Source: an uncultured bacterium (GTDB lineage: Bacteria; Caldisericota; Caldisericia; JAAYUI01). Taken from it: DNA of 64,000 nt. The stretch spans positions 3,477 to 67,476 of the forward strand of contig CBDUSO010000004.1 in NCBI GenBank assembly GCA_965370295.1, read 5' to 3'. The notes beneath the pieces are model-generated. The model was not told the origin of the DNA, did no database searches, and saw only the letters and a program-made list of their open reading frames with translations. The position numbers and the translations under genes are program-made. How positions within the stretch are numbered: position 1 is the stretch's first letter; each line of letters starts with the position of its first letter. This document shows, piece after piece, positions 1-36,317 of the stretch.

Positions 1-130
1 TCCCAGGGGTTTATAAAATCGCACTCAAAACAGGAAAACAACAAGTATCCAACCAGTCAAAATCATTGTTTCAGATAAATATTCACACGCCTTGACAGCA
101 CCCTGGATTCCGCATCAAGTGCGGAATGAC
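1..130 (+). repeat. Composite hairpin-bounded intergenic element, copy A (left end cut by window edge)
   Basis: The core tataaaatcgcactcaaaacaggaaaacaacaagtatccaaccagtcaaaatcatt...ttgacagc is followed by the hairpin ccctggattccGCAtcaagTGCggaatgac (101-130). It aligns in the same orientation with 15727-15876 and as a reverse complement with 10228-10379 and 34858-35009. Confidence 0.8.
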
Positions 131-262
131 AAAGGATATGCAAAACTGCTAACTATCAGTTAAGAATTGGATTCGGAATCTCAGTCCTTCAAACACCAAA
201 AATATTCACATCATACAGATTTTGGAGATTTCGTGCTTGACAAAGAATGAGGAAGAGGATGT

Positions 263-2098
263 TTAAAGATTCTCCTCAACAACTCTTGCAATCCCAGCAG
301 AATCCAAACCATATCTCTCCAACAACTCACGGCGTGTGCCAATCGGAGGAATCTCATCCTTCACGCCAATATTAACAACATTTGGAATTCCAAGACGGGC
401 TTTAATTCTCTGACCAATTCCGCCAGAAATTATGCCGTCTTCAACTGTAACTATCAAAGATTTGCCCTTGCTTGAAAATTCGATTGCTTCCCAGTCAAGG
501 GGCTTTGCAAATCTTAGATTCAAAATCTCGCACTCAATTCCCAGCTGGGAAAGTAGCAGAGAAGCCGCGTGAACCTGGTTGCTCAAGGCTCCGATATAGG
601 TTATCAAAACTGAATCCCCGTCTCGCTCTTTTCGAGCTTTTCCAAGCAGAACATTTTCAGGGTTTTCGGTTTCATTTGTCTGGTCTTTTGGGTAGCGGAT
701 GGCACAGGGTGAGTTCATGGAGAGTGCCAGTTTCAGCATCTCATCAAGTTCACCGGAGCTTGCAGGTGCCATGATTGTCATTCCTGGAATCATGGACAGA
801 TATGCCAGATCAAAAATTCCTTGGTGTGTCGGACCATCAGCAGGCACGACCCCAGCACGGTCAATCGCAAACACAACCGGTTGATTCATAAGGATTACAT
901 CATGGATTATCTGGTCAAAAGAACGCTGAAGAAATGTGCTGTAGAGTGAGACGATTGGTTTCATCCCGGCTTTTGCAAGACCGGTTGCCATTGAGACTGT
1001 GTGTTGCTCAGCGATTCCGACATCCAAAACCCTGTCCGGGAATTCTTTTTTTACGGAGGCAAGTCCAGAACCTTCAATCATTGCGGAACTTATGACAACA
1101 ATTTTTTCATCCCGCTTCATCAACTCTGTCAGACTTTTGCCAAAAACTGAAGAATAACTCTGACTGCTCTTTGCACGGTTTCCGTTTGCGGTTTCAAAGG
1201 GTGGGGTTCCGTGGAATTCTGTTGGACCATCCTCAGCATATTTGTAACCCTTACCTTTTTTGGTGAGGACATGCAAGAGGATTGGACCTTCCATCTTTTT
1301 TATTTTTTTCAGGAATGCAACCACTAGGCTGATGTTGTGTCCGTCGATTGGACCAAAATATCTGAATCCAAGCTGCTCAAAATATTGGCTTTTCAAAAGA
1401 ATATTTTTGAATGCAGACTTTATTCTCATTCCAGTGCCAATTATCCATTCGCCGAACCTGCCAAGTTTTGAGAGGAATGTTCCAAGAGAGCGACTTATCC
1501 CTCGGTATGTCAGCGATGCACGGAATTTATTTGTGAGCAGGGACAGAGCACCAACAGACGGAGAGATGGACATCTGGTTATCATTCAAGATGACGATAAT
1601 ATTTTCACCAAGGGAGCCAAGATGGTTGAGGGCTTCAAAGCTTTCGCCACCCGTCAGGCTTCCATCACCGACAATTCCGATGACATGATGGCTCTCACCC
1701 TTCAATTTCCTGGCAAGAATTTCACCCGTTGCAAGCGACAGGGCGGTTGAGGCATGACCGGTGTGATAGTGGTCGTGAGGGGATTCTGTGGGGTGTGGGT
1801 ATCCAGACATCCCACCAGATTTTCGGAGTGTGTCAAACATGTTCAATCTTCCCGTCAGCAACTTGTGGGGATAGCACTGGTGTCCGACATCAAAAATAAT
1901 CTTGTCAACAGGCGAGTCAAAAACCTTGTGGATGGCGATTGTAAGCTCGGTTATTCCAAGGTTTGATGCAAGGTGTCCACCATTTTCCGAGACGGTTTTT
2001 ATGATTTGTTCCCGAATCTCAGAGGCAAGGGAATCCAGCTCTCCATTTTTCAGGTTCTTAAGTTCCCGCGGTGATTCAAGTTTTTCGAGTCGACTCAT
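263..2098 (-). CDS. dxs: 1-deoxy-D-xylulose-5-phosphate synthase
   Basis: The 611-aa ORF carries the N-terminal GHQCYPHKLLTGR block, the ThDP-binding GDGSLTGG motif and transketolase-like middle and C-terminal regions. The ATG at 2096-2098 was verified. Confidence 0.96.
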   Translation of the reverse strand: MSRLEKLESPRELKNLKNGELDSLASEIREQIIKTVSENGGHLASNLGITELTIAIHKVFDSPVDKIIFDVGHQCYPHKLLTGRLNMFDTLRKSGGMSGYPHPTESPHDHYHTGHASTALSLATGEILARKLKGESHHVIGIVGDGSLTGGESFEALNHLGSLGENIIVILNDNQMSISPSVGALSLLTNKFRASLTYRGISRSLGTFLSKLGRFGEWIIGTGMRIKSAFKNILLKSQYFEQLGFRYFGPIDGHNISLVVAFLKKIKKMEGPILLHVLTKKGKGYKYAEDGPTEFHGTPPFETANGNRAKSSQSYSSVFGKSLTELMKRDEKIVVISSAMIEGSGLASVKKEFPDRVLDVGIAEQHTVSMATGLAKAGMKPIVSLYSTFLQRSFDQIIHDVILMNQPVVFAIDRAGVVPADGPTHQGIFDLAYLSMIPGMTIMAPASSGELDEMLKLALSMNSPCAIRYPKDQTNETENPENVLLGKARKERDGDSVLITYIGALSNQVHAASLLLSQLGIECEILNLRFAKPLDWEAIEFSSKGKSLIVTVEDGIISGGIGQRIKARLGIPNVVNIGVKDEIPPIGTRRELLERYGLDSAGIARVVEENL

Positions 2099-2195
2099 AT
2101 CAGCAAAGAATTATAATCCAAACAAATATTTTTCAAGGTTGCCTGGAATTTTTGTGTGGACGATTGTGGGATATTGATTTGAAGCGGTAGAACAT

Positions 2196-2240
2196 CATTG
2201 ACAAATATATTCAAGACTAACTGGAATATATTTGTCAATG
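2196..2240. promoter_or_regulatory. Perfect 17-bp inverted repeat (11-bp spacer) in the divergent dxs / CoA-binding-protein promoter region, with a TATAAT at 2244-2249
   Basis: cattgacaaatatattc (2196-2212) pairs perfectly with gaatatatttgtcaatg (2224-2240). Each arm contains TTGACA on one strand. A TATAAT lies 7 nt before the ATG at 2257. Confidence 0.5.
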
Positions 2241-2256
2241 CCCTATAATTTGACTC

Positions 2257-2664
2257 ATGAAAAACATGAAAGAAATTCTGGACACATCAAAAGTGATTGC
2301 CGTTTATGGAGCATCCATCAAGCCCGAACGCAGTAGCTGCCGAATCGCAAAATATTTGATGGCTAAGGGTTACACGGTTTACCCGGTGAACAAGATGTAT
2401 GCTGGACAAAAGCTGGCTGGAAAAGAGATTCTTGCGACAATTTCCGATGTTCCAGAAAAAATTGATATTCTGGATGTTTTCAGAAAGTCCGTTTTTCTGC
2501 CGGAAATTCTCCCGGAAACACTAAGAGTAAAACCAAAAACCGTCTGGCTTCAGCTTGAAATCAGAAATGAGGATGTTGAAAAACAGTTGAAAGACGCTGG
2601 AATTGAAGTGATAACAGACCACTGCATCTATACTGTTCACTCAGGGAAACCAGGAGAAATATAA
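2257..2664 (+). CDS. CoA-binding domain protein (YccU/YneT-like)
   Basis: The 135-aa ORF reads VIAVYGASIKPERSSCRIAKYLMAKGYTVYPVN near the N-terminus, which is typical of the CoA_binding_2 Rossmann fold. Confidence 0.75.
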   Translation: MKNMKEILDTSKVIAVYGASIKPERSSCRIAKYLMAKGYTVYPVNKMYAGQKLAGKEILATISDVPEKIDILDVFRKSVFLPEILPETLRVKPKTVWLQLEIRNEDVEKQLKDAGIEVITDHCIYTVHSGKPGEI

Positions 2665-2668
2665 TTCC

Positions 2669-3085
2669 ATGGAGAAAAAATTTGTTGGCTCTGATTCAAA
2701 CTGTTTTGCCTGTGGTGAAAATAACAAAGATGGGTTGCACCTGAAGTTTGCAAAGCTTGAGGATTCTGTCGAGGCATTTTTTGTGCCTGACAAAAAATAT
2801 GAGGGGTGGGATGATATAATCCACGGTGGAATTGTTTCCACGCTTCTTGACGAGGCAATGTCCCATGCCATCTTCAAATTCATGGATGTAACCGTGGTGA
2901 CAGCAGAGATGACTGTGAGATTTATTCGACCCTTGAGGGTTGGCAGAAATATTCGAATCACTGGGAAAATTGAAGCGGACAAGGGAAGAATTCTTGAGAC
3001 CGTTGCTACGATTTATGATCTCGATGACGGGGATAAAGTTGTCGCAAAGAGTACTGGGAGATTTGTGCGGGTGGAACTGGATTAG
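2669..3085 (+). CDS. Hotdog-fold acyl-CoA thioesterase (PaaI/YbgC-like)
   Basis: The 138-aa ORF carries the HGGIVSTLLDEAMSHA motif. It starts 5 nt after the previous stop, so the two genes are probably an operon. Confidence 0.8.
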   Translation: MEKKFVGSDSNCFACGENNKDGLHLKFAKLEDSVEAFFVPDKKYEGWDDIIHGGIVSTLLDEAMSHAIFKFMDVTVVTAEMTVRFIRPLRVGRNIRITGKIEADKGRILETVATIYDLDDGDKVVAKSTGRFVRVELD

Positions 3086-3114
3086 ATATTCAAGTCGTCA
3101 TTCCCATCCCTTTC

Positions 3115-6100
3115 TCACTTATACGGTAGCTTCGATAATTCCCGCACGAGTTTGACTGTTTTCAGAGACACTGTTACAATCTTTCCAATCAATTCAAAGA
3201 TATACTTTTCATTACCATCAAAGTTGTTTGGGTCTTGGGTGATGCCTGAGCGTTTGTCTGTTTTCACTCGGTATTGGTCTATTATCCATTCAAGTGCTGA
3301 GCGGTTTCCAAGTTTGTATTCAAATACTTCTTCTGGAATACCTTTTAATGTGATTGCATCGTTGTAGATAAGGTCTGTTTTGTCTTTGTTCAGCTTCATC
3401 TTTTCAACTCTGAACTTGGCAGATGGGAAAATATCTTTGTCAACTATTTCATCAAGCTCATAAATATCAGCATCTTCATAATTCAAATGAATATCTGCAA
3501 GTTTTTTACCAATCTTGCTAAACTTCCGGAAGTCTGGAGCAAACGGAATACGAGGTAGCGACCTTTTCAGATTTTCTTTGAAGTCTTCACGGTAGTCAGG
3601 ATGGTGGAGCATCGCATAGATATAGTAGAATATATCCCATTTGGTGATGGGTTTTCCAGCTGAAGTCTGCAACCCCCCAGATTTTCCTGTAGAAAATCTG
3701 ACCCCCTTGACAGGGGGTTCTTTAAGCCCCCTTTTTGAAGGGGGGATGTCCTGTGCAACAGGACTGGGGGGTTGTTGGTTTTTGTAATGATCTTGATACT
3801 TCACAAGAGTTTTGTCTGTGATATTCTCTTTTCTTCCTGTACCATCTTCGTTGTAGGTGTAGAATGGGAAAGATTGTGTTGGTCTTCCCCCAACATCTAA
3901 ACTTGGGATTATTTTGGATATTTGTGTTGAAAATGGAACCTGCGAATGATTGGTTACGCACAGTATTTTATTTTCTTTTTCAGATTCTGGTGTTGGGAAA
4001 ATATGATGTTGTTGGTAACGTCTTTGGTTTAAGAAATGGTCAAAGTATAAATATGATTCACAGAATGGTCTATATTTTGATTTTCTAATCTTGATACTAT
4101 CAAATTTTGTATATTTCTCATTCAAACAATGTTGTTTCAGTGAACTATTCCACTTTATCTTTCTTTCATCGTAAGTAACAAAATCATCGATGTTGATGCT
4201 ATCCTTCTTTTCCCTGTTCAAATATTCTGTTAGCCTATTTACTTCTGAGTTGTATGTACTAACAAATGATTCAACATTTTTAGCTAGTTCTTGTTTGTTG
4301 AAACTGTATACCCACTGGTCTCTACTTGTTGCAACACCTAAACTGAACATATTAAAAATCGTATCGCAATCTTCCTTGCCTTTCTGTTTTTTGTCTCCCA
4401 TCAAAAGATATTCTTCAAAATCGTCTGCCATCCCTTCGGTCAACCAGAGATGATTTTTATTTGGTGTGAGTTTTTTCCAATCAATTCCTTCTATGTTTGA
4501 TTTTTCTGTCAGAAACTCATATTTCTGTTCTTTTTTCCAGAATGTGTCAACGTCTGCAAAATTGAGTTCAAAGTCCTTGTTTCCATCCTTTTTCTTGATA
4601 AAAATATTAACTGAAACACCAACTTGAATCCCAAAAACATTGTGTGTTGTACCTGACAGCTTTGGGTTTTTCCTAACATTCCCACCAAGGTCTAGAACAT
4701 AAACCTTATCAAAGTCATTACTCAGATGTTTCCTCACTCCGTCAAAAGCGTATTGGTCAATAAACCCATTATTTGTGATCATGGCAACCACACCTTCGTC
4801 ACCAATGCGTTGTGATGCCCATTTGATGGCTTTTACATAAGGATCAGCAAGGTTTTTTGTATTTGTTGCCTTTGAATCTTTGCTGTATGTATCACTGATT
4901 GCTTGTTCCAGTTTCTTGTATTTCCTATTTTTGTTGTTATCCATCTCATTTGATTGATTTGAGTTATATGGAGGATTACTTATCACAACAAAGATTTCTT
5001 TCTCCCTCTGACTCCTTACTCTTTCTGAATTCTCCTCATTCATGTATTTGTTCAAAAGCTTTGGAATATTTTTTTCTTCCTTTTGTTTAGCTTCATCTTC
5101 AAACATTTGGAATGTATCTGCAAAGCATATTCCTGGGAATTCTTTTCTTTCACCCATGGCTTCAAAGTAGGCATGCTCGATGTTCATGTTTGCAATGTAG
5201 TATGGCATGAGCTGGATTTCATTGCAGTGGAGTTCACTCTCGTATTTCTGTTCCAGTTTTGTTGGGCTGATTTTGTCTATCACATTTACAATGAAGTTTC
5301 CAGTTCCCACAAAAGGGTCAATGATATGGACATTCTTGCTACCTAACCCGTGTTTTTTACCAAACTCACGTTTTAGAATTTCATCAACAGAATTCACCAT
5401 GAAATCAACCACGGATTGAGGAGTGTAAACAATACCCAGCCTGTCTGCAGATTTTATTGCCCAGCCCTGGAAAAACCTTTCAAAGATGTCATTTAGGAAA
5501 ACTTGTTTTGTTTTGAAGTCTTCCAGCTTGTCAGCGGCTTTTATTATTGCATCATAGAAATGGTCAAGAGTACCAAGGAAATCCACTCTGTTGAAATATT
5601 TTGAGGTCATCGAAGAGATGACTTTGTCGAGTTGACCTGCAACAGCATTATCTTGAGTAAACCTTTTCAAATCAAAGATGCTTTCAAGGATTCGCTCTGT
5701 CAGGAGGTGCTGAACTATCATCTCTTTGATTGCATCTTTATTGATGTTTGGGTTGATTGATGATTTGCAAAGGTTGTAGAATTTATCAAACTCTCCTACA
5801 AAGTTTTTGTTTTTCTTTTCTGATTCTTCAATTTTTTCAAGAAGACCTTTTGCAAGGATTGGCATTTGCTCATCAAAAGTTTTGATGGCTTCATTCCATG
5901 ACCCTCTGTCAAAGTGTTCATAGTTGAAAAAATTATTCAATATTGATACCAGATTGCCTTGGTTGTCTCTGATACTTTCATCTCTGACAATTTTTTTGTT
6001 TTGGATGAGCACAATTCTTTTGGGTTGCCAGAAAAGGATATTGAATCTTGGATAGCTCTTTTCGTTGAGTTTTATTTTTATCTCATCATCGAGAGTGTCA

Positions 6101-6423
6101 TCATCATCTTTTGATTCCATGTATCCCATTGCAAGAATGCCCGCTGGTTCAAGGAAGGTGCCATCTGGAATATTGCCATTTGGAAGAGCTTTTTTATTAA
6201 CAAGTTTCCAGCCCACTACTCTGGAGCAATGGTTTAGGAGCGTTATAAAATGAGGCTCAACCGCACTCTCTGGAGGGTTGCCTTTGTTATGAGTTTTGAA
6301 ATAAATGTCACATTCTTCTTTGATTTGCTCGAAGTACTTTTTTACTGCTTTGTCATCCGCTTCTAAGTTTAGATTGCTCAATTTGTATGTCCCCTGTTCT
6401 GGTGCATCTTGCTGGGGAGACAT
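3115..6423 (-). CDS. Single-polypeptide restriction-modification enzyme (Type IIG / Type ISP-like): PD-(D/E)xK-like N-terminus, gamma-class N6-adenine methyltransferase and C-terminal specificity domain
   Basis: The 1102-aa ORF has a nuclease-like motif IPDG...GYMESKD. Methyltransferase motif I (IIDPFVGTGNF) precedes motif IV (ISNPPYNS). The C-terminal block KWDIFYYIYAMLHHPDYREDFKENLKRSLPRIPF resembles the Type ISP C-terminal specificity domain. No helicase domain and no partner gene were seen. Confidence 0.85.
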   Translation of the reverse strand: MSPQQDAPEQGTYKLSNLNLEADDKAVKKYFEQIKEECDIYFKTHNKGNPPESAVEPHFITLLNHCSRVVGWKLVNKKALPNGNIPDGTFLEPAGILAMGYMESKDDDDTLDDEIKIKLNEKSYPRFNILFWQPKRIVLIQNKKIVRDESIRDNQGNLVSILNNFFNYEHFDRGSWNEAIKTFDEQMPILAKGLLEKIEESEKKNKNFVGEFDKFYNLCKSSINPNINKDAIKEMIVQHLLTERILESIFDLKRFTQDNAVAGQLDKVISSMTSKYFNRVDFLGTLDHFYDAIIKAADKLEDFKTKQVFLNDIFERFFQGWAIKSADRLGIVYTPQSVVDFMVNSVDEILKREFGKKHGLGSKNVHIIDPFVGTGNFIVNVIDKISPTKLEQKYESELHCNEIQLMPYYIANMNIEHAYFEAMGERKEFPGICFADTFQMFEDEAKQKEEKNIPKLLNKYMNEENSERVRSQREKEIFVVISNPPYNSNQSNEMDNNKNRKYKKLEQAISDTYSKDSKATNTKNLADPYVKAIKWASQRIGDEGVVAMITNNGFIDQYAFDGVRKHLSNDFDKVYVLDLGGNVRKNPKLSGTTHNVFGIQVGVSVNIFIKKKDGNKDFELNFADVDTFWKKEQKYEFLTEKSNIEGIDWKKLTPNKNHLWLTEGMADDFEEYLLMGDKKQKGKEDCDTIFNMFSLGVATSRDQWVYSFNKQELAKNVESFVSTYNSEVNRLTEYLNREKKDSINIDDFVTYDERKIKWNSSLKQHCLNEKYTKFDSIKIRKSKYRPFCESYLYFDHFLNQRRYQQHHIFPTPESEKENKILCVTNHSQVPFSTQISKIIPSLDVGGRPTQSFPFYTYNEDGTGRKENITDKTLVKYQDHYKNQQPPSPVAQDIPPSKRGLKEPPVKGVRFSTGKSGGLQTSAGKPITKWDIFYYIYAMLHHPDYREDFKENLKRSLPRIPFAPDFRKFSKIGKKLADIHLNYEDADIYELDEIVDKDIFPSAKFRVEKMKLNKDKTDLIYNDAITLKGIPEEVFEYKLGNRSALEWIIDQYRVKTDKRSGITQDPNNFDGNEKYIFELIGKIVTVSLKTVKLVRELSKLPYK
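3670..3774. mobile_element. 105-bp palindromic element inserted in frame in the methylase CDS (RPE-like)
   Basis: It is bounded by 11-bp terminal inverted repeats, caaccccccag (3670-3680) and ctggggggttg (3764-3774). Inside are four consecutive short hairpins. Its length is exactly 35 codons with no stop. A partial second copy lies at 35154-35206. Confidence 0.7.
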
Positions 6424-6535
6424 TGTATGCCAAAGCTGGTTTGTGGTCGAGAAAATTATTTTTCTTTACACCAAAACTTTGTTGTGGTTGCCTTCTGAAA
6501 ACATTTATTGTTAATTTTGATAAATAAAATAAAAC

Positions 6536-7033
6536 CTACTCCGTATCAACCACCACAATTGCCGGAAAATCCACAACCTCTAGCCTGTAAACAGCTTCCG
6601 GTCCAAGATGAGCAAACGCCACAACCTCTGCAGAAACAACCTTTGTGGCAAGCAAAGCACCAATCCCGCCAAGTGCAGAGAGATAGATGGCACCGTGTTT
6701 TTTGAAAGTTCTGGTGGTTTCTTCTGTGCGAGGACCTTTGCCAATTGCGATTGCCACACCCAACTGCAACATTCCCTCGGTATAAACGTCCATTCGGCTT
6801 GAAGTGGTTGGGCCAATCGAGCCAATCGGTCTGCCGGGAGGAGCGGGAGCAGGGCCTGCATAGTAGATGATTTTGTTATTCAAATCAAAAGGAATTTCAT
6901 TGTCTTCCACGATGAGTTTGTGAGCAGAATCCCGTGCGGTGAACATCTCGCCAGAAATTAAAACCAGGTCACCATTTTTCAGTTCCTTCAATTTTTTCCG
7001 GTCGACAGGAGTTGTGATTTTTACAGTTCTCAT
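6536..7033 (-). CDS. Class-I (Fe-S) fumarate hydratase / L(+)-tartrate dehydratase, beta subunit
   Basis: The protein starts MRTVKITTPV... and contains GPTTSSRMD and AIGKGPR motifs. The start was moved to the ATG at 7033, which has a GGAGG RBS. It overlaps the alpha-subunit stop as ATGA. Confidence 0.88.
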   Translation of the reverse strand: MRTVKITTPVDRKKLKELKNGDLVLISGEMFTARDSAHKLIVEDNEIPFDLNNKIIYYAGPAPAPPGRPIGSIGPTTSSRMDVYTEGMLQLGVAIAIGKGPRTEETTRTFKKHGAIYLSALGGIGALLATKVVSAEVVAFAHLGPEAVYRLEVVDFPAIVVVDTE

Positions 7034-7857
7034 AAAATTCCTCCTGCATGCCTTGCTGCGTGGCACTGAATATTTACGGCAACCGGGAGGGTCGCAATGT
7101 GGCAGGAATGGCTGAGAACATGGGTGGCAAGCACCGTGTTTGACCCGCCAAATCCACCAACACCAATTCCAAGTTTGTTGCATCTTTCCGTGATTTCAAT
7201 TTCAAGATCAGCAAATTCATCGCTTGGATTTTCTTCAAGCAGTGCAAACTTTGCGAGCCTTGCGACATGTTCGATTGTTCCACCAAGACCAACTCCGAGC
7301 GTGAGAGGCGGGCAAGCGGAAGCCCCCTTGAGACGGACTGACTCCACCACAAAATTTATGATGCCCTCTCTGCCGTCTGCGGGTGTCAGCATCGCGACTC
7401 TGCTGGCATTTTCCGAACCGCCACCCTTTGGTGCGATGATTATTTTAACATTCTCACCTGCCACAATTTCTGTGTGGATGATTGCTTTTGTGTTGTCTCC
7501 AGTGTTTCTTCTGTCGAGTGCTGAGACCAGCATTGAAGCTCGAAGATAGCCCTGCTCATAACCCCTGGCTACCCCTTCATTTATGGCAGATTCCAGGTCA
7601 AAATCCAGGTAACATTCCCTTCCAATTTTCAAAAAAACCACAGCCATCCCACAATCCTGGCAGATTGGCAATTTGGACTCCAGGGATAATTCTGCATTTT
7701 CTAAAATCTGTGAGAGTAGTTCTTTTCCCAACTTAGTAACTTCAGTTTCCTGAGCTTTTTTCAAAAGTTCAAGCTGATATTTTGGGAGTATGCGATTTGA
7801 TTTGATGCAGAGCGTTGCAACCAGTTCCACTAATTTTTCTCTATCTATATTTCTCAT
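7030..7857 (-). CDS. Class-I (Fe-S) fumarate hydratase / L(+)-tartrate dehydratase, alpha subunit
   Basis: The protein starts MRNIDREKLVEL... and contains CQDCGM, APKGGGSEN and ASACPP motifs typical of the Fe-S hydro-lyase alpha region. The ORF-track N-terminal extension runs into a repeat element and was trimmed. Confidence 0.88.
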   Translation of the reverse strand: MRNIDREKLVELVATLCIKSNRILPKYQLELLKKAQETEVTKLGKELLSQILENAELSLESKLPICQDCGMAVVFLKIGRECYLDFDLESAINEGVARGYEQGYLRASMLVSALDRRNTGDNTKAIIHTEIVAGENVKIIIAPKGGGSENASRVAMLTPADGREGIINFVVESVRLKGASACPPLTLGVGLGGTIEHVARLAKFALLEENPSDEFADLEIEITERCNKLGIGVGGFGGSNTVLATHVLSHSCHIATLPVAVNIQCHAARHAGGIL

Positions 7858-7984
7858 CCGACCTCTGTTATTTCTGAGTTTTTTCCAGTGTCTGCATTTT
7901 AAGATGTTTGGGTGGAAAAGCAAATAATCTATTCCCCCAGTTTCCCGTGTTATAATCCCTTTGAAAAGGGGGATCAAAAGTATT

Positions 7985-8080
7985 GTCATTCCGCACTTGA
8001 TGCGGAATCCAGGGTACTGTCAAAGCGTGTGGATACTTGGAAGAAACAGCTGTTTGTCAGGTTGATTGTTGGTGTTATCC
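7985..8080 (-). repeat. Composite hairpin-bounded element, copy B (partial, distal end missing)
   Basis: The hairpin gtcattccGCActtgaTGCggaatccagggt is followed by ctgtcaaagcgtgtggata...gttgattgttggtgttatcc, which aligns with the reverse complement of 1-130. Confidence 0.65.
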
Positions 8081-8096
8081 GACCTTCCCGTTTTTA

Positions 8097-10034
8097 TCAC
8101 TCTTCAGCTTCAAGTTCCGTATCTTTTGTATCAACTATCTTTTTGCAAACTAAATAGTATTTTTTATCAATCCCTCTTGAAATGTAGTACATCAATCCAT
8201 CACGGATTTCCAGGATAGGATCAAAAGTTTCACCATCTAATCCAACATTTATACCCAAAATCTCATATGTTTCTGGATCAAGCCAGAAATATTGTCGGAT
8301 TATATATCCATCAAAACTTTTCTTTCTGTGGTACTGATAACTGTCACTGTCATGCAAAAAATTCTCTATTTTAATTTCGGTTATTTCACTTGTTTTAATA
8401 TTGATAAATAGATGATATGTGCCAAAAAGTGTCTTTAGATTTTTTGTTGTTACCACAAAGTACCCATTTTCGATTCTAGAGTGCAAAAAATTTCCATATG
8501 TTGAAAAATCATCTAGTGTCCATACCTTTTCACCCGTTCTTATGTCTATTGTGTAAAATATATTATCTTCTTGGACAATAAAAAAGTCATCTTCTGTAAA
8601 TGTCCATGTATCATGATTTTTGGGTTGAGTCCATATGGTATTTAGAGTTTCATTGTCAATTCTGGAAATATCAATAATTGATATGAAATCATTACTTGTT
8701 ATTTGATTGATGTGATATGAAGCATGTGGTTCATAAAATTCAGGTTCAATGCAACCAGCCAACAGTACATATTCATTATGTTTTGCTATTCTTCCATTTG
8801 TAGGTATTTCTCTATTTGAAATCAATTCACCAGTGTGAGAATATTTATGCATATAGTATTCTACATCTAGCATGTTTGAATTATTTTCTTCTATAAGAAT
8901 TATGCTATCATGTAATACAACAAAATCCTTAATTCGCATAAATTCTTTAGTCCACATAATTTTGTTTGTTTCAATTTCAACAAGTGAATGGACTAGTATT
9001 GAGTTTTCACCACTGTAAGAGGATACAAATTTGTATTTCTTGCCAGTTTCTTCAGCTTTCATTCTGTCAATTCTGTTTTTAATGTCTTTTTCTGAGTCAT
9101 CCAGTACTTCACCGGTTTTTATGTCAACAGCGTAATAATATCTGTTAGCTTCAATCTTTGGATAATCATTTACATCATACTCACTTGGGAATTCAATGTA
9201 TAGGTAAGCTTTTTGATCTTCTATATAATAATTGCTTACACTTTTGAAATAATAACCCATGTAGTCTTTTTCTTTTAACCAGCTCCATAGTTTCTCACCT
9301 GTGTTTGTATCATACGCTATAAGATTAAAATAATTGTCACCCCCTTCACCTACAGGACTTCTTTGAAGTATTACATCATTATAGATATCTAATTTTGAAT
9401 CCCATACCTCGCCAGATGCTGTTTTCCAAACTATTGGGTAATCTGGTAAATCCGTTCTTTCTACTATTAAGTCTGGTAAATCTTTGTAATGATCTATATT
9501 TGCATTTCCACATATGTACCCAACAATATTTTCATCATCATCGGTGCATTTACATTGACCAATACTATCATAACAAACTTCTTTACGATCTACTTTCGAA
9601 CAGTACACCTTAAAATAAAATTCTTTGGTTTCGTTTGGTTTCAATGAAATGTAGTTTGGAAAAATATCCGGAGTTTCCAAAGAATTTTTTGGATGTCCTG
9701 GATCATATATTTCAACAGTTAGTGCTTGTTCAGAAATATTTGTAATTTCCAATGGTAAGTCTATTGTTTCATCTGCTTTCATGAATACATGTTTTGTTTC
9801 ATTATACTTGTCGCTTGATTTCCATCTGATGAATAGATATTTGTTCTTTCTTATTTCTTTTGGTTTTTGTGTTTTGTTTGTTGTTTCGGATGGTTCCACT
9901 GGTTTAATTGTTGTGATTTCCTCTATAGTTTCCTGATCTTCTGTAGCAATCGGTTCACCATTTTCACCGCAAGAAACAAAAGAAACCAACAACACAACAA
10001 CCAAAAACATCTGCATAAAACTACTTCTTTTCAT
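8097..10034 (-). CDS. Lipoprotein with PQQ-like/BamB-type beta-propeller repeats
   Basis: The start was trimmed to MKRSSFMQMFLVVVLLVSFVSCGENG, which has a lipobox Cys and a GGGGGTGG RBS upstream. Repeated blades read DTNTGEKLWSW, DIKTGEVL and DIRTGEKVWTL. Confidence 0.6.
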   Translation of the reverse strand: MKRSSFMQMFLVVVLLVSFVSCGENGEPIATEDQETIEEITTIKPVEPSETTNKTQKPKEIRKNKYLFIRWKSSDKYNETKHVFMKADETIDLPLEITNISEQALTVEIYDPGHPKNSLETPDIFPNYISLKPNETKEFYFKVYCSKVDRKEVCYDSIGQCKCTDDDENIVGYICGNANIDHYKDLPDLIVERTDLPDYPIVWKTASGEVWDSKLDIYNDVILQRSPVGEGGDNYFNLIAYDTNTGEKLWSWLKEKDYMGYYFKSVSNYYIEDQKAYLYIEFPSEYDVNDYPKIEANRYYYAVDIKTGEVLDDSEKDIKNRIDRMKAEETGKKYKFVSSYSGENSILVHSLVEIETNKIMWTKEFMRIKDFVVLHDSIILIEENNSNMLDVEYYMHKYSHTGELISNREIPTNGRIAKHNEYVLLAGCIEPEFYEPHASYHINQITSNDFISIIDISRIDNETLNTIWTQPKNHDTWTFTEDDFFIVQEDNIFYTIDIRTGEKVWTLDDFSTYGNFLHSRIENGYFVVTTKNLKTLFGTYHLFINIKTSEITEIKIENFLHDSDSYQYHRKKSFDGYIIRQYFWLDPETYEILGINVGLDGETFDPILEIRDGLMYYISRGIDKKYYLVCKKIVDTKDTELEAEE

Positions 10035-10160
10035 ACTACCACCCCCTGATAAAATAATCAAAACAAAGAATATCCAGACTGAACATCGATACTTTGACCT
10101 CTCTGTTGAAGTGTACTCAAAAAAACTATTCATGCAATATATCATTGTTCCTGTGATGTT

Positions 10161-10209
10161 GTCATTCCGTGTCTGATACTTTGACTAGCTCAGCAACCAT
10201 ACGGAATCC
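10161..10209 (-). repeat. Hairpin module with expanded loop
   Basis: The sequence is gtcattccGT[gtctgatactttgactagctcagcaaccat]ACggaatcc. It has the same conserved flanks as the other modules but a 30-nt loop. Confidence 0.55.
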
Positions 10210-10227
10210 ATTACTTTACCACCCTCC

Positions 10228-10379
10228 GTCATTCCGCACTTGATGCGGAATCCAGGGTACTAGAAATTCGTGAGAGTATCTGTGCAAAACAATGATTTTG
10301 ACTGATTGGATATTTGTTGTTTTTCTATTTTGAATGCGATTTTATAATCCCCTGGATTCCCAGTCAAGCTGGGAATGAC
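10228..10379 (-). repeat. Composite hairpin-bounded element, copy C (complete)
   Basis: The hairpin gtcattccGCActtgaTGCggaatccagggtac is followed by a ~90-bp core (...caatgattttgactgattggatatttgttgtttttctattttgaatgcgattttataatcc). It ends in a second hairpin, cctggattccCAGtcaagCTGggaatgac. Confidence 0.8.
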
Positions 10380-10436
10380 GAGGAGGGGGGTGGGGATAAT
10401 GGAGGGAAGCGGGAAAGACGTAGGTAGATTTTGTCC

Positions 10437-10462
10437 GTCATTCCGTGCTACGACACGGAATC
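10437..10462 (-). repeat. Hairpin module overlapping the smc stop codon
   Basis: The module gtcattccGTGctacgaCACggaatc encodes, on the minus strand, the last smc codons ...D S V S followed by the stop. Confidence 0.6.
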
Positions 10463-13400
10463 TAATTTTTTCTCTTTATCCTTCTCATCCAATTTCACAC
10501 CAACCACCATCGAAGTTCCCGATGAATCCAGCGTGATTCCATAGAGTGTGTCGCACCAACGCATGGTTTCTTTGTTGTGGGTAATCACCACAAATTGTGT
10601 GTCCTTGGCTTCTGTTCGAAGGAGTTTTGTGAATCGCTCCACGTTGTTGTCGTCAAGTGCAGCATCCACCTCATCAAGCACACAAAACGGAGAACTCTTT
10701 GTTCTAAAAAATGCAAACAAAAGTGCCAAAGCACCAAGGGTTTTTTCACCGCCGGAGAGTCCATGAAGATTTTTCATTCTTCTCCCTGGCAACATGAATT
10801 CCACTTGAACACCGATTGTTTCAGTGTTTTCATCCCTGATTCTTTTCAGATTTCCGACAGCACACGGAAACAAAACATCGGCAAGTCTTCTGAATTCTTT
10901 TTCAATTGTCTGGTAAACTCTCTCAAAATTTTCTCTGATTTTTGTTTCAAGCTCAGCAAGTGATGCTCGCAGGTTTGCATCAGTTTGGGCAAGGTCATTT
11001 AGTTGTCCCTCGATGAAATTCAGTCGCTCCCTTGCGGTTTCTGCTTCCTCGACAGCCCTCATGTTGACCGCTCCGTACTCTGCAAGCTGACGGCTCTTGT
11101 CGGAGAGTTCCACCCTCATGGCATCCACATCGGTGTCCTCGATGTACCCGTCTGGACTTCCACCCATCTCAGAAATATCGCTTACCTGTCGGTCTCTCTT
11201 TGTTCGCAGTTCAACCTGTTGAAGCTCGATTTTATGTTTTTCACTACCGTATCTTCCGAGCCTTGAACGGACTGTTTTGATTTTATTTTCCCGCTCAAAC
11301 TCGCTCTCTTGCAACTCTTCACGCTCACTGGCGAATTCTTTTTCAAGCCTCTCAGTCCTTACAACTGTCATGTTTGCAGTGTTTAATTCTCTCTCGGAAA
11401 CTATGATTTCCTCGGAAATTGTTTTTGATTCGGTTTCAAGTTTTTTGCTCCCCTCATCAAATTCGGTAACGGATTTCTTCAGAGACTTGTGTGCTGTTTT
11501 TTCTCGCTCAAGATTTTGGATGGTTTCTTTGAGGGCATTTTCTGCCTGGTCGACCGCTCTTCCCACGGTTGCGATTTTTCTCTCAAACTCTGCTCGGGAT
11601 TTTTCACGGGTCAGTCTCTCCTGGTCAAATTCCGCGAGCTTGTTCCCGGTATCTCGAACCAGAGAGATGGCTTCTCCGAGGTTCTTTTGCAATTCTTGCA
11701 ACTCTTCAGTTTTTCCTGTTTCAGAATTTCTGAACTGCTCGATTTCTTTTTGGAGTTTTTCTAAATCTTCTACTCTCTTTATTTTTCTGTGTTCCAGCTC
11801 TTCTCTTCGGGTGATGATTTGGGTTTGTTCTCTCTGAAGGCGTGATTGTTCTTTGGTTTTTTCGGAAATTTCAGAATTTAGATTGTTGAGTATCGAGTTT
11901 ATTTCTGCGAATTCTGTTCCAAGTTTTCTGGTTTCTTTTTCAAGATTTGTGATGATTGCAGAAATATTTTTGATGTCCTGAGAAATTGAGGTTTCACTGA
12001 CCTTACCCTCGGTCTGGAAGATATATTTCCCCTCGATTATCAGGTGCCCATTTTTTGTGAGCTGGATGGATTCCTTTCCTTCAAGTGCAGTTTTTATGTC
12101 GGGGGTCATGTTGAAACTTGGAACCCCAAGGACAATGGTTGCACCAGAATTTGATGGGATATTTTCCATTATTTCTTGAGCATCATCCTCTGCGATTATC
12201 CAGTCAAGTTTATTTTTTATGAGGGTTTTTTCATCTGTCGAAAAGCTGCTCAAATCAAGTGATTTGGCAAGAATTTGTTTCCCGATTTTTGACGGTAAAA
12301 ATTTTAGACCATCAAGTTGAGCTTTTTTTTGTTCAAGCTCTTTTCTGCCAGTTTTTATTTCTGCTTTCAACCCCGCAAGCTGGTTGCTGATGTCATCTTT
12401 TTTGCTTTGGGTCTTGGTTTGTTTGGATTTGAGATCTGCAATTTCTGACTCAATATTTTGAAGCTGTTCTTCTAGATTGTTTTCTTCCGGCTCTTCTTCC
12501 TTTATATTTTGAAGCTGTTCGATTGTTTTGCCGGTCTGTCTCAGTCTCTCCCGAAGTACTGTCAGTTCGGATTCACACGTTGCCAGTTTTGAGCGAATTT
12601 TGTTTGTTGATTGCTTTTGTTTGTCAAGCTCTCTTGTGAGTTCTCCCCGTTTTCTGTTCTCGTCTTTTTCGTTTGTGTCGGGTGCTTCAATTTTTGAGAG
12701 TTCTACTTTTGTTTTTTCGACTTCTTCTCTCTCTACTTCAACCTGCTCGGTTAATTTTCGAATCAGATTTTCTTTGGAGATTGCTTCCTTTTTTCCAGAT
12801 TCAACCGCAAGAATTGCTTTTTGGATTTCGTCTGAGATAGATTCCAAACGCTCTCTCTTGTGTTCCAACTCGGAACTTCTGCGGGTTTTGATAACCAGTG
12901 CTTCCTCCCGCTCCCTGTGAACGGTTTCCTTTTTTTTGTCGAGATCAACTATTTTGGATTTCATGGAAGAATCTGACTCAAGACTCGAAAGTTCATCCTC
13001 GCTTTCTTTTTGTTTGATGTTGATAACTCGGTAGCGAGACATGAAAGATTCAAGCTCATGCTCAATCTCTCGAATTCCAATCAGAAGAAGCTGGAGCTTG
13101 AGGTGAGTAGCCCGGTCGCTGATGGATTTGTATTTGTTCAGAATCTCACTTTGAATGCGGAGGCGTTCGTAGTTGTGTTTCTGCTCGTTGATGCTGGCAT
13201 TTATCCTGCCCATCTCAACATTTGCTTTTTCGAGTTTTCGCTCGACACTTCGTTTGGTGTTTCTGAGAATATCGACACCAGCGAGCTCTTCCATCGTACG
13301 GAGTCTCTCGCCGGGAGTTGCCGAAAGCACCAGGTCAACCTCACCTTGACCAACAACCGAGTAGGTTTGTTTGCCGAGACCAGTTCCTCTGAACAGGTCG

Positions 13401-15726: not shown

Positions 15727-15876
15727 GTCATTCCGCACTTGATGCGGAATCCGAGATAGTAAAAGATCGCACTCAAAATAAAAACAACAATTATACAACC
15801 TGTCAAGATTATTATTTCACACAAATATTCACTCGCTTTGACAGTACCCTGGATTCCTGGTCAAGCCAGGAATGAC
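15727..15876 (+). repeat. Composite hairpin-bounded element, copy D (complete)
   Basis: The hairpin gtcattccGCActtgaTGCggaatcc is followed by the core aaaagatcgcactcaaaataaaaacaacaattatacaacctgtcaagatt...tttgacagt. It ends in the hairpin accctggattccTGGtcaagCCAggaatgac. Confidence 0.8.
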
Positions 15877-17366: not shown

Positions 17367-17397
17367 TGTAGGGGTGGGTTTCAAACCCGCCCCTACA
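17367..17397. repeat. GC-rich hairpin of the second family (GTAGGGG..GGGTTTCAAACCC..CCCCTAC)
   Basis: tgtaggggtgggtttcaaacccgcccctaca lies 57 nt downstream of the stop at 17310, so it could act as a terminator or insulator. Relatives lie at 24400-24428, 36277-36305 and 17645-17672. Confidence 0.6.
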
Positions 17398-17437: not shown

Positions 17438-17588
17438 GTCATTCCGTACTTGATGCGGAATCCAGGGTACTTGAAGTTGAGTAAAAATTAGAGAAGAATA
17501 GAAATCTTATCAGGTTTGGCTGTTGTTTCTTTTGAAAAATCGGCACATTTCTATAATCCCCTGGATTCCCGTTTTCACGGGAAAGACG
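17438..17588 (-). repeat. Composite hairpin-bounded element, copy E (core diverged)
   Basis: The hairpin gtcattccGTActtgaTGCggaatccagggtac is followed by a diverged core ending ...tttctataatcc. It ends in cctggattccCGTtttcaCGGgaaagac. Confidence 0.6.
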
Positions 17589-17644: not shown

Positions 17645-17672
17645 GTAGGGAACGCAGATCTGCGTTCCCTAC
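17645..17672. repeat. Perfect hairpin gtagggaacgcagatctgcgttccctac
   Basis: It is a 12-bp perfect stem. It shares the GTAGGG...CCCTAC ends of the second hairpin family. Confidence 0.55.
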
Positions 17673-24295: not shown

Positions 24296-24326
24296 ACCCT
24301 GGATTCCGCATCAAGTGCGGAATGAC
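24296..24326 (+). repeat. Solo hairpin module
   Basis: accctggattccGCAtcaagTGCggaatgac is identical to the module at 101-130. Confidence 0.75.
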
Positions 24327-24399: not shown

Positions 24400-24428
24400 G
24401 TAGTGGCAGGTTTCAAACCCGCCCCTAC
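24400..24428. repeat. Second-family hairpin (imperfect)
   Basis: gtagtggcaggtttcaaacccgcccctac has two mismatches in the stem relative to 17367-17397. Confidence 0.5.
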
Positions 24429-24613
24429 AAGCTCCTTCAATTGACAATAAAATACGGGTAATCCCAGGATTGTCCCTATAAACATCACCCACAATCAAAA
24501 TATTCAAATCCCAAACCCAACCCCACTTTACCAAACCGAAATTCCACGGTATAATCCAAACCAAAGATGAACCAGTATCAAAAACAAGAACACAGAGGCA
24601 GAGGGAACAGGAA

Positions 24614-33232: not shown

Positions 33233-33336
33233 ACCGGGAGTCCATTGTACTGAAAAGTTTTTGAAAATCCAGTCCTTGGGTTTTATCTTAGGAACATCAA
33301 GTTGCTTTATGGTTACACTTGTGTATACTTCCATTT

Positions 33337-34839
33337 ATGAAAACAACAATGGAAAACATTGAACAACACTTTGATAAAATCCGAAAGAAAATTGGGAAAG
33401 ATGAATGGGATAATGTTCTTTTTTCTAAACCAATGAACCATGAACAACACAATGATATACTGAAGGAATTTTATCAAAATGAACAATATCTTCTGGCTCT
33501 TGAAAATATTTCAAATTCACCAGATATTAGCTTTGCTTCAAAAGAAGCAGGTATTCGATGGAAAAATAATTTCCTGACAAAAAAGGTTGATTTTACAAAA
33601 GAAATAAACGAATTTGAAAAATACATCAATGAGTTCGAAGAAAAAGCCAAGTTTAAAATCTTGGATGAAGAAATAAAAATTCGAAAACTCTATAGCTATT
33701 ATTATAATCAAAATCCAAATAAACCAGAGAGAAATAAAATCGCTGAAAAGCTGATGGAGAAGCATTTTAACGTGATGACAAAATACCGTGAAAAGCTCCA
33801 TCGAATGAAACGGGATACTGGAAATACTCAAGGCATAAATTATTTTGAATTGAAGTGTGGAATCACTGGTTTTTCTTCAAAAACAATACTGGAATTCATC
33901 AGAATTGCAATCGAAGAAAGCAAACAGGAAGCTCTAGAATATGAGAGCTGGATGAAAGCAAACTACAACCATAGTCAAAATGGAGGATCATGCAAAAAGC
34001 TTGATTCCGAAGTAAATCCCATATTTAAGCCAATTGATTGTGTAAGCTCTATGAGAGATGTTTTTTCTGACATTGGATTATTGAAAGGCTTCAACAAAAT
34101 CAATTTTTTCAAAAAAGAGGATTACAAAAATAGTGCTGGTTATTGCACATACGAAACGTATGAAGCACCAGAGAATGTGAAAATGTTTATTCCACAAATG
34201 TCGCCAAGTGGAATGTTTGACACACTTTATCACGAAGTTGGACATGCCGTTCAGAATACTGCATATTCAAATCCATACTGGATATTTTCTGAAAACATGG
34301 TTACAGATGATGAAATTTGCTCATCACTTGTGCAGTTAATTTATCTCCAGCCTGAATGGATAAAAAGATTTATTGGAACTTCTGATAAAAAAATAATCGA
34401 GAAAATCAAATACAGCTCGATTATTTCAAATATTCCCTGGATTGTGATAAATTCCTGTCTCGGATTCCAGGCTTTGGATTTGTGTTACAACTCAAATTCC
34501 GATATAATTTCTGAGTACAACAAGATTCATAACTCTGCATATTCCTACAAAAATTCAACAAATGAAACAGTTTCATTTGTGACATCTCTTGCATTTGGTG
34601 GGAGTGGTTTCAAGGGTGTGAACTATGCGACCGGATATGTCATTGCAAACTTTTTGATGAAACTTCTGAGGGCAAATTGTGATTCGATTTTTGACAAAAC
34701 GATGGGGGAATACATCAAGGAATTTGCTCGTAGTGGGAATCTTTATCCTACCTCAGAAATTCTTGGAAGAATTATTGAAAAAACAGATAACAAAATAAAG
34801 ATTCCAGAATCGATAGAGGTGCTATTGGCTGATTGTTAG
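33337..34839 (+). CDS. Putative zinc metallopeptidase (HExxH; possibly M3-like)
   Basis: The only clear motif is LYHEVGHAVQ. The ORF-track start at 33319 is a TTG. ATGs at 33337 and 33349 are alternative starts. Confidence 0.5.
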   Translation: MKTTMENIEQHFDKIRKKIGKDEWDNVLFSKPMNHEQHNDILKEFYQNEQYLLALENISNSPDISFASKEAGIRWKNNFLTKKVDFTKEINEFEKYINEFEEKAKFKILDEEIKIRKLYSYYYNQNPNKPERNKIAEKLMEKHFNVMTKYREKLHRMKRDTGNTQGINYFELKCGITGFSSKTILEFIRIAIEESKQEALEYESWMKANYNHSQNGGSCKKLDSEVNPIFKPIDCVSSMRDVFSDIGLLKGFNKINFFKKEDYKNSAGYCTYETYEAPENVKMFIPQMSPSGMFDTLYHEVGHAVQNTAYSNPYWIFSENMVTDDEICSSLVQLIYLQPEWIKRFIGTSDKKIIEKIKYSSIISNIPWIVINSCLGFQALDLCYNSNSDIISEYNKIHNSAYSYKNSTNETVSFVTSLAFGGSGFKGVNYATGYVIANFLMKLLRANCDSIFDKTMGEYIKEFARSGNLYPTSEILGRIIEKTDNKIKIPESIEVLLADC

Positions 34840-35009: not shown

Positions 35010-35086
35010 AAGAGGAGAATGTCAGCCATAGCTGACATCTACAACTACGATACAAAATCTACGGAAACAAGAAAAGGAGGTTTGAT

Positions 35087-35117: not shown

Positions 35118-35153
35118 AGAGGAAGTAGTATGAGATAACGGAGCTGGAGCTCT

Positions 35154-36305: not shown

Positions 36306-36317
36306 AAAAATATAACG

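Follow-up and report, generated by a model that had tools for sequence, protein, structure and literature searches.

An in-frame compound-hairpin repeat in a DrdV-like restriction-modification gene of a Caldisericia bacterium

Introduction

Rickettsia palindromic elements (RPEs) are palindromic repeats of about 100 to 150 bp that are found between genes and also in frame in unrelated genes, where they are translated as tolerated surface segments (Ogata et al. 2000, reviewed in PMC10969869). In-frame palindromic repeats have been a curiosity ever since, and both their spread and their tolerance by proteins are unsettled. Here, we describe a palindromic element in a 64,000-nucleotide stretch of DNA from an uncultured Caldisericia bacterium (GenBank contig CBDUSO010000004.1, positions 3,477 to 67,476; hereafter the window, numbered from its first letter). 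The element has its palindromic core at 3670-3774, within a DrdV-like Type IIL restriction-modification gene on the minus strand (3115-6423), and is probably a translated, in-frame, RPE-like passenger copy of a compound-hairpin repeat dispersed in this Caldisericia lineage.

Other described systems share some of these features. Repetitive extragenic palindromic sequences (REPs) are short GC-rich hairpins that occur as singlets or as inverted doublets (REPINs), and the RAYT gene is flanked by cognate, lineage-specific repeats of this type (PMC3116915; PMC3733652). REPs are occasionally found inside open reading frames (ORFs), and REP clusters can encode 43-82 amino acids (PMC3733652). Bacterial MITEs (transposable elements of miniature size with inverted repeats), such as Correia, ERIC, Nezha, and QMITE, are small, multicopy, and of non-coding origin, carry terminal inverted repeats, and can make in-frame fusions (PMC10969869, PMC5896051). 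Finally, Vsr-like nucleases are known as homing endonucleases, and Vsr-like ORFs that stand alone inside coding regions, with neither an intron nor an intein, have also been reported (PMC2677866).

The present locus goes beyond an ordinary RPE-like case through reuse of one loop across phyla, a series from empty to composite at one codon, and a candidate nuclease partner. The host protein has a solved homologue, and this defines the tolerated position as a two-residue turn from helix to helix, which along with a second loop has been hit repeatedly in several phyla. At this one codon position a graded series is found, from the empty site through a single hairpin and a doublet to a doublet-nuclease-doublet composite. 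The candidate partner, a DUF559 nuclease, makes the question of mobilisation testable. If the partnership is true, it would provide a function for a widespread domain of unknown function and would explain the many Pro-Pro...Lys-Gly-Gly segments scattered in cyanobacterial proteins.

Results and Discussion

The element is absent from homologous enzymes

A sequence-only reading of the window had described a palindromic element of 105 bp at 3670-3774, bounded by perfect terminal inverted repeats of 11 bp, containing four hairpins, and lying in frame over 35 stop-free codons of the restriction-modification gene. In line with this, the core was found to encode residues 884-918 of the ORF at 3115-6423 (peptide QPPSPVAQDIPPSKRGLKEPPVKGVRFSTGKSGGL, no stop), with three of the six possible frames open through it. 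An alignment to homologues had been proposed as the way to recognise a lineage-specific insertion. When the host protein was aligned to DrdV, residues 48-882 and 925-1096 were matched, and DrdV runs directly from 840 to 842 with no segment between. Most of the 40 closest database proteins read HYKD-xx-ITKWDIF without an insert. At the nucleotide level, 71 genomic loci from many phyla were compared, and in about 60 of them the flanking blocks are 3 nt (one codon) apart, compared to 43 codons in the window gene. An empty site is also present within Caldisericia, in locus L126, where the DNA reads CAC TAC AAA GAC ACA AAA ATC ACA AAG TGG. The encoded HYKD-TK-ITKW corresponds to HYKN-Q[41 aa]P-ITKW in the window, with 41 extra codons between two loop codons. 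Judged by these alignments, in which one codon stands here in some 60 homologues, the solved DrdV among them, the element is a lineage-specific in-frame insertion relative to its homologues.

The same unit was found in two further Caldisericia genes: in L001 it occupies the same loop (site 1), and in L002 a non-homologous loop after amino acid 613 (site 2). These are paralogues on one Joint Genome Institute contig, and their copies, which occupy non-homologous positions, are 84% identical over 117 nt and near-identical outside an inner hairpin that has been swapped whole. At the level of sequence comparison, this pair is the best evidence here for duplicative spread.

Architecture of the inserted unit

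The palindromic core is closed by terminal inverted repeats CAACCCCCCAG and CTGGGGGGTTG (3670-3680 and 3764-3774; 11 nt, 100% complementary). Between them lie hairpin 1 at 3678-3700 (CAGATTTTC/GAAAATCTG), hairpin 2 at 3701-3718 (ACCCCCT/AGGGGGT), hairpin 3 at 3727-3745 (CCCCCTT/AAGGGGG), and hairpin 4 at 3748-3764 (GTCCTGT/ACAGGAC). The left arm of hairpin 3 has five C residues and not the six given previously. Both strands of the core fold as an outer stem closing four hairpins, with energies of -65.5 and -61.7 kcal/mol (z = -5.7 and -6.3); of 200 dinucleotide shuffles, not one matched this.

On the coding strand, an 18-nt tail (3652-3669, ...GGGGGGTTG CAGACTTCAGCTGGAAAA) follows the right inverted repeat and is common to the window, L001, and L002 copies. 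Since this tail is shared with the other sites and with the intergenic copies described below, the inserted unit is 123 bp long and not 105 bp. It spans 3652-3774 on the minus strand and is read through in frame as 41 codons (Q884-K924), in agreement with the empty site in L126 and the presence of the same unit in L001 and L002. The core had also been placed immediately before the conserved block of the protein, from which it is in fact separated by five residues (QTSAG, followed by KPITKW).

Read on the plus strand, the unit consists of an arm T, an 8-nt spacer, and an arm T'. Arm T (3652-3720), recognised by its identity to intergenic copies, comprises the tail at 3652-3669, an outer C-run (CAACCCCCC, 3670-3678), the AT-rich hairpin at 3678-3700, and an ACCCCC-loop-GGGGGT hairpin at 3701-3718. 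Arm T' (3727-3774) comprises a CCCCC-loop-GGGGGG hairpin (3727-3745), the small hairpin GTCCTGT/ACAGGAC (3748-3764), and an outer G-run (3764-3774). A small variable hairpin, a C5-loop-G5 hairpin, and an outer run of C or G are thus common to both arms. Apart from the tail, which it lacks, T' is approximately T in reverse complement, and the element is therefore an inverted doublet (T-spacer-T') of a compound-hairpin unit of about 70 bp. The order of hairpin, small hairpin, and G-run seen in T' was also found in L139 and L039.

When four copies were folded to a consensus, three of the hairpins persisted along with the outer stem, and the GTCCTGT/ACAGGAC hairpin proved to be a feature of the window copy only. 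Six of the nine pairs of the small AT-rich hairpin are preserved through changes on both sides. This hairpin is exchanged whole between copies, which carry CAGATTTTC/GAAAATCTG, CGCATCCGAT/ATCGGATGCG, CAAATCCGTTG/CAACGGATTTG, or CGACTTTGC/GCAAAGTCG. Such pair-preserving swaps could result from structural selection or from template-switch repair that restores perfect palindromes.

Unit T is a dispersed repeat

A partial recurrence of the element had been noted at 35154-35206. This copy is real, and includes the left end and the first two hairpins, but its extent had been given too short, as the tail continues at 35140-35153. The complete copy (35140-35207, plus strand) is an intergenic singlet of unit T, with tail, CAACCCCCC, and two hairpins, surrounded by other hairpin repeats that form a nest where two ORFs converge. 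The window contains exactly two occurrences of the 17-mer CAACCCCCCAGATTTTC, where 0.26 matches are expected by chance when up to 3 mismatches are allowed, and three C5-loop-G5 hairpins are present against 0.13 expected. Two further singlets with the tail were found at 7196-7249 and 12217-12274 of L221, a contig of a related genome. These and the window singlet are 88-92% identical to the in-gene T arm, and the identity of the coding DNA around the insert to its nearest homologues is only 69-76%. The identity of the intergenic copies upholds the previous view that the element is a repeat and not native coding sequence.

A truncated and degenerate copy of unit T lies at 7930-7975 of the window. 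Compared with its intact orthologue at L221 7196-7249, it has lost the small hairpin, the outer run, and the tail, and copies of unit T therefore turn over between close relatives. Taken at the level of sequence, the element belongs to a resident dispersed repeat family of this Caldisericia lineage. No transposase gene was seen next to any copy examined in the window and the compared loci; no dedicated transposase search was made. The exact pattern CCCCCCAGATTTTC-N(3-9)-GAAAATCTG had no match in the collections of genome contigs and metagenome contigs, from which the window's own lineage is evidently missing.

In the Caldisericia loci that were counted under a strict hairpin criterion, 25 C5/G5 hairpins were found in 24 kb of restriction genes, against 13 in 151 kb. 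The idea that such hairpins are nearly confined to Caldisericia restriction genes was ruled out, because L221 showed unit T to be an ordinary repeat of intergenic DNA as well in the window's own lineage. The enrichment is real for the loci counted, and partly reflects the shared ancestry of the gene family and the strictness of the criterion.

Related repeats in other protein genes

Repeats with the core motif CCCCCCNACCCCCCTTCANAAGGGG were found at 50 loci in metagenome contigs, mostly of cyanobacterial appearance, and five of these lie at the 3' end of DUF559 genes. No match to the core motif was obtained in viral contigs. Among 51 distinct copies, 24 fall within open stretches of at least 200 amino acids, in either orientation. 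The hosts of in-frame copies include a nonribosomal peptide synthetase adenylation domain, a GH38 mannosidase, CobN/Mg-chelatase, WD40 repeats, and STAND NTPases. As far as these ORFs indicate, the repeat family is coding-compatible well beyond the restriction gene. Two observations concern copy number within such genes. Three tandem 39-nt hairpin copies are read in frame in the linker of a Pyr_redox-SelD fusion (L104 1239-1360), and the close CobN/Mg-chelatase genes of L093 and L105 differ by one sub-repeat unit.

Recurrent insertion in one loop of the recognition domain

The insertion had been regarded as an unusual event; instead, the same loop proved to be a recurrent hot spot across phyla and can hold a DUF559 domain. 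Inserts at this loop in Caldisericia are 129, 129, 201, and 132 nt long, with two further inserts of 498 and 735 nt that contain DUF559. Two paralogues of a Synechococcales cyanobacterium carry 33 nt each, consisting of a single CCCCC-loop-GGGGG hairpin, and inserts of 24 and 27 nt are present in an Ectothiorhodospiraceae metagenome-assembled genome (MAG) and a Kapaibacterium MAG. An Ignavibacteria MAG has 462 nt inserted in frame with G-rich and C-rich inverted ends (L070 5499-5962); this insert, which contains neither DUF559 nor any other recognisable domain, encodes a hydrophilic segment of low complexity. Although the flanking blocks of these loci were searched independently of reading frame, all 11 insert lengths are divisible by three, which argues for translation and against RNA splicing. 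The junctions shift by a few nucleotides between lineages, so that the loop is shared and the phosphodiester bond is not.

Similar inserts were found at the second hot spot, after amino acid 613, in P0002, P0003, P0009, P0010, and P0014. The close relatives P0009 and P0010 differ in the number of tandem hairpin units. In a rough neighbour-joining tree, the Caldisericia proteins form one clade in which all except P0006, P0008, and P0011 carry inserts, and P0014 lies outside it. A restriction-gene paralogue in L039 (11770-12232) joins the two hot spots: a block of hairpins and DUF559 links residue ~612 straight to ISKWDIF, and the ~270 residues that separate the hot spots are missing, presumably lost through recombination between repeats.

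The structure of DrdV allowed the loop to be placed. Its recognition domain comprises residues 636-1029, and the bases are contacted by N673, R721, Y764, D803, and K807. The insertion point at 840/842 is downstream of all of these. The insert had been placed inside the target-recognition region, but it is outside the DNA-reading part of that domain, past the segment of base contacts (N673-K807). In an AlphaFold model of the host protein, residues 882-922 form a coil with a predicted local distance difference test score (pLDDT) below 50 between helices at 870-881 and 928-939. The model thus agrees with a flexible segment that loops out at the surface from a tight turn between helices.

A candidate partner nuclease

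At the same loop, three Caldisericia homologues (L003/L004, L023, and L039) contain an in-frame DUF559 domain (PF04480, Vsr-like) that is bracketed by hairpin elements; L097 carries the same gene as L023. In-frame DUF559 domains with hairpin elements on both sides were also found at another site in an Anaerolineae homologue (L059) and in a metagenomic MnmA fragment (P0163). None of the residues invariant among free-standing DUF559 proteins has been lost from the in-frame domains, which are therefore not decayed.

Free-standing DUF559 genes related to these domains are likewise bracketed by elements of the same grammar, with a repeat sequence specific to each nuclease lineage. In a flank-alignment test, 11 of 12 cellular DUF559 loci had repeat-bearing flanks, and in the twelfth, L023, a direct repeat was read from the sequence; eight of the 12 had been picked without regard to hairpins. 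The flank repeats are of a C6 type in L078, L100, L116, L118, and L127 and of a C4 type in L132. The element of L139 (Latescibacter) has the four-hairpin order of the window element, including a TGTCC...GGACA hairpin against the outer G-run. In L140 (Caenarcaniphilales), the DUF559 gene is surrounded by 105-nt direct repeats that are 85% identical. A full-text literature search, itself of incomplete coverage, returned no account of DUF559 genes that are accompanied by cognate hairpin repeats or are translated in frame within another gene, and these loci hint at a pairing of nuclease and hairpin repeat that has not been described. One locus stands in an unusual setting: in L127 (2292-2950), a DUF559 gene with hairpin flanks lies between cas1 and cas2 (Cas6-Cas4-Cas1-DUF559-Cas2), and it is identical in several samples.

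On this association, which resembles RAYT genes flanked by REPs, a partnership between DUF559 and the repeats is plausible. Tentatively, and with the balance of the evidence still short of favouring it, we propose that a subset of DUF559 nucleases and their cognate multi-hairpin doublet repeats might form a mobile partnership like that of RAYT and REPINs, on a different nuclease fold and in several phyla including Caldisericota, Cyanobacteria, Latescibacterota, and Chloroflexota. The repeats, and even the nuclease domain, would be carried in frame by hairpin-encoded Pro/Gly linkers without splicing, and the window element would be a solo unit at a recurrent landing or recombination site.

Comparison with known systems

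The parallel with RPEs drawn by the sequence-only reading is apt with regard to behaviour, as the repeat is found both in frame in a gene and in intergenic copies. The element shares with RPEs its size class, its palindromy, its intergenic and in-frame locations, and its apparent translation as an extra surface segment. The likeness seen is one of behaviour: the element comes from Caldisericota, and the relatives of its family are mainly cyanobacterial. It is further distinguished as a GC-rich insert in an AT-rich gene, as a doublet of multi-hairpin units, and by its association with DUF559 in relatives, whereas RPEs have no known partner enzyme. Since the host is a Caldisericia bacterium, the element has not been filed as an RPE.

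The closest architecture is that of the REPIN doublet (PMC3116915), which is matched by the T and T' arms closed by an outer stem and by the singlet at 35140-35207. As for REPs and RAYTs, the candidate DUF559 partner is flanked by its own repeats, whose sequence differs by lineage. In contrast to RAYTs, this putative partner is a nuclease of the DUF559/Vsr-like PD-(D/E)XK fold and not a Y1 (IS200/IS605-type) transposase. The family also lacks the GTAG or CGTC tag of REPs. While REPs are predominantly extragenic, the window copy is intragenic, as are the related copies in long ORFs counted above. No RAYT (Y1) transposase was associated with this repeat family in the copies seen; the window as a whole was not searched for a RAYT.

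Like MITEs, the element has terminal inverted repeats and multiple dispersed copies. Unlike MITEs, it has no target-site duplication, and its ends are plain C and G runs that close internal hairpins. With no such duplication and no parent insertion sequence (IS) adjoining the copies examined, it does not appear to be a canonical MITE. The resemblance to Vsr-type homing lies in the relatives, which carry a Vsr-fold nuclease inside a conserved host gene at a fixed site. These differ from homing systems in that no splicing element is present and the nuclease domain appears to be read through, with Pro/Gly linkers encoded by the hairpins as its tethers. No nuclease is present in the window copy, and the insertion points shift by a few nucleotides, unlike those of precise homing.

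Proposed mechanism and alternative explanations

Collectively, these findings favour a translated passenger copy of the dispersed repeat. The repeat doublet sits in a two-codon helix-helix turn of the target-recognition domain of a DrdV-like gene that was probably acquired recently. Its persistence may depend on a length that is a multiple of three, the absence of a stop in frame, and a flexible loop rich in Pro, Gly, Lys, and Ser at a tolerant surface position; with these three conditions in place, the element would be a selfish or neutral passenger. DUF559-type nucleases, or recombination between copies, could spread the repeats. The role in spreading is proposed on the grounds that repeats bracket DUF559 genes and that a composite of element, DUF559, and element occupies the same loop in three homologues. 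The lone element of the window may be an independent non-autonomous copy, or a remnant left after recombination of flanking elements deleted a nuclease.

Several results weigh against parts of this reading. With regard to insertion, no consistent direct repeat that could be a target-site duplication was found at the window, L001, L002, and L005 junctions, where only short A-rich microhomologies are present. The element is 76% identical to the L001 and L002 copies, and the flanking gene DNA is 69-73% identical. As element and flanks are about equally diverged, the insert could be old and inherited vertically within the gene family rather than recently transposed. The window contains only one doublet. 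The quality of the AlphaFold model is moderate, at a mean pLDDT of 71.8, and confidence is also low for a conserved segment next to the insert. With regard to the nuclease, no DUF559 gene was found in ~110 kb comprising the window, L221, and five other Caldisericia loci (L001 and L002 being from the same metagenome as L221). Identical P0126 and identical P0162 proteins were each found in one genomic context across samples, which for one of the two is the position between cas1 and cas2, and direct mobility of the nuclease was thus not seen. Among viral contigs, examined as a control, flanking repeats were present at only 4 of 39 DUF559 loci, with the same grammar in those four; the link between nuclease and repeat therefore holds for a subset of the DUF559 family, as an association only.

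Some of these points would suit a plain event of the MITE or RPE type, in which a small palindromic transposable element unrelated to DUF559 is tolerated in frame and the recurrence at the loop reflects survival under selection only. The terminal inverted repeats, the small size, and the intergenic copies agree with it. So do the junctions, which vary between lineages as for independent hits in a permissive loop, the lack of a DUF559 gene in the sampled DNA of the lineage, and the scarcity of flanking repeats at viral DUF559 genes. We consider this explanation unlikely. It would lead one to look for a target-site duplication, which is missing, and for a related IS with the same ends, of which none was seen (as stated, without a dedicated transposase search). 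The REPIN-like grammar of a doublet of hairpin units is not the design of inverted repeats bound by a transposase, and every cellular DUF559 locus examined is bracketed by this grammar, as is the DUF559 domain at the same loop in three homologues. More improbable still is a device of benefit to the host, whether an intragenic attenuator or terminator in an AT-rich toxic gene, phase variation by C6/G6 slippage, or a loop that alters the properties of the enzyme. The hairpin at 3701-3718 in arm T does have a terminator-like pattern on both strands, the sense strand included, as does the intergenic copy at 35140-35207; the element has three runs of 6 C or G; and tandem hairpin number differs between close relatives, in P0009 and P0010 and in L093 and L105. 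Runs of 5-6 nt are, however, shorter than typical phase-variable tracts, no frameshifted allele was found among the homologues, and the inserts at the loop are all in frame. The same repeats are found in unrelated housekeeping genes and in intergenic DNA, the content of the insert is not conserved between orthologues, and the site is beyond the DNA-contacting residues.

Two explanations in which the segment is not a mobile repeat tolerated in the mature protein are very hard to sustain. A native, fast-evolving, low-complexity linker with incidental palindromes would account for the predicted disorder of a Pro/Gly/Lys-rich segment and for the length variation of related enzymes at this point. 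This is already contradicted by the empty sites, with some 60 homologues having no linker at all, and by the intergenic copies, to which half of the element is 88-92% identical; moreover, the DNA folds far better than its shuffles, the same unit occupies a non-homologous site, and its stems co-vary. A self-removing intein or intron, which would leave the mature enzyme without the segment, draws on the in-frame position in a conserved gene and on the endonuclease domain that relatives hold at the site in the manner of homing elements. Yet no Hint or intein motif or domain was detected with Pfam, and the junctions (QPPSPV...SAGK, then P) offer no nucleophilic residues. Nor did the window contain any Rfam match at gathering score: the two sub-threshold hits, with 26.1 bits (cut-off 50) and 21.6 bits (cut-off 49.5), are at chance level. 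A spliced RNA, in addition, need not keep a stop-free multiple of three, as all 11 inserts do. With neither splicing motifs nor an Rfam match, an intein or intron was therefore rejected, as was a known structured RNA, in so far as motif and family searches can decide. A translated, RPE-like passenger copy of the dispersed repeat thus stays the preferred reading.

The host gene and its genomic context

The host gene encodes an intact protein of 1102 amino acids that was assigned to the DrdV-like Type IIL enzymes by homology and Pfam domains (ISP_coupler, N6_Mtase, and Type_ISP_C). Nuclease, coupler, N6-adenine methyltransferase, and Type_ISP_C target-recognition domains follow one another in a single chain. 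In line with a Type IIL enzyme, the chain begins with a PD-(D/E)XK nuclease at the N-terminus, has a methyltransferase of the gamma-class N6-adenine type (NPPY), and carries Type_ISP_C at the C-terminus, and the helicase-like ATPase domain of Type ISP enzymes was not found. DrdV (PDB 7lo5) aligns from residue 48 to 1096 (E=2e-181), and LlaGI and LlaBIII align across the methyltransferase and recognition domains. The three solved enzymes (PDB 7lo5, 5ffj, and 4xqk) have the same domain order and a near full-length alignment, and differ from the host protein in having no segment at the insertion point.

Invariant alignment columns hold the nuclease triad D87/E103/K105, the S-adenosylmethionine (SAM) motif DPFVGTGNF at 369-377, and NPPY at 483-486. 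Given the uninterrupted ORF and these motifs, the host gene therefore looks functional, and the restriction enzyme is most likely still working with the insert. An altered or lost specificity had also been suggested. Nothing in the sequence points to either an altered specificity or an inactivated enzyme, as the catalytic and SAM motifs and the ORF are intact and the site is beyond the base contacts. For the restriction enzyme itself the message is accordingly modest: it is encoded by a strain-variable island, is probably active, and carries an insert that gives no sign of a new specificity.

The gene has a G+C content of 35%, compared to about 44% on both flanks, and stands alone; its neighbours are dxs, a CoA-binding protein, and a thioesterase on one flank and fumarase on the opposite flank. 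The window Dxs belongs to a cluster at ≥90% identity that contains a Caldisericia MAG protein. L221 is collinear with window positions 1-12000 at 86-92% nucleotide identity. In L221, window positions 3091-6527 are replaced by a 410-bp nest of hairpin repeats (12754-13163 of the reverse complement), and the restriction gene is absent. As the gene is present in the window and missing from the collinear contig, it therefore represents a strain-variable single-gene island, and it was most likely acquired recently. The 410-bp nest is made up of three hairpin-repeat families, one of them a degenerate, reversed unit T, and such repeat nests may serve as landing pads for islands of the restriction-gene type. 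The locus of P0002, which has an Na/H exchanger beside it, was considered as a syntenic counterpart and ruled out, since the 611-amino-acid neighbour in the window is Dxs by Pfam. In L125 and L126, the homologous restriction genes adjoin Abi_2 abortive-infection genes, and the L125 contig also bears ParA and ParB, which suggests plasmid-like carriage.

Other repeats in the window

The intergenic copy of unit T at 35140-35207 is one of four distinct hairpin repeat units that fill 34858-35207, between the convergent ORFs at 33319-34839 (plus strand) and 35234-36124 (minus strand). A second and commoner intergenic hairpin repeat, GTCATTCC-GCACTTGATGC-GGAATCC, has seven near-exact copies in the window (105-130, 7985-8010, 10228-10253, 15727-15752, 17438-17463, 24301-24326, and 35092-35117). 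In variants of it at 10343, 15840, 17555, 34858, and 34977, the stems are wholly different yet still complementary. Copies of unit T often abut repeats of this GTCATTCC type. REP-like palindromes tagged with GTAG, for example GTAGGGGTGGGTTTCAAACCCGCCCCTAC, were found at 17368-17397, 24400-24429, 36277-36306, and 17645-17672, and resemble the GTAG REP superfamily that has been linked to RAYT transposases (PMC3733652). On a larger scale, a large coding block is present as three diverged copies in tandem in the region from about 39000 to 64000, at a spacing of 9.2-11 kb and with repeat segments that are 67-84% identical.

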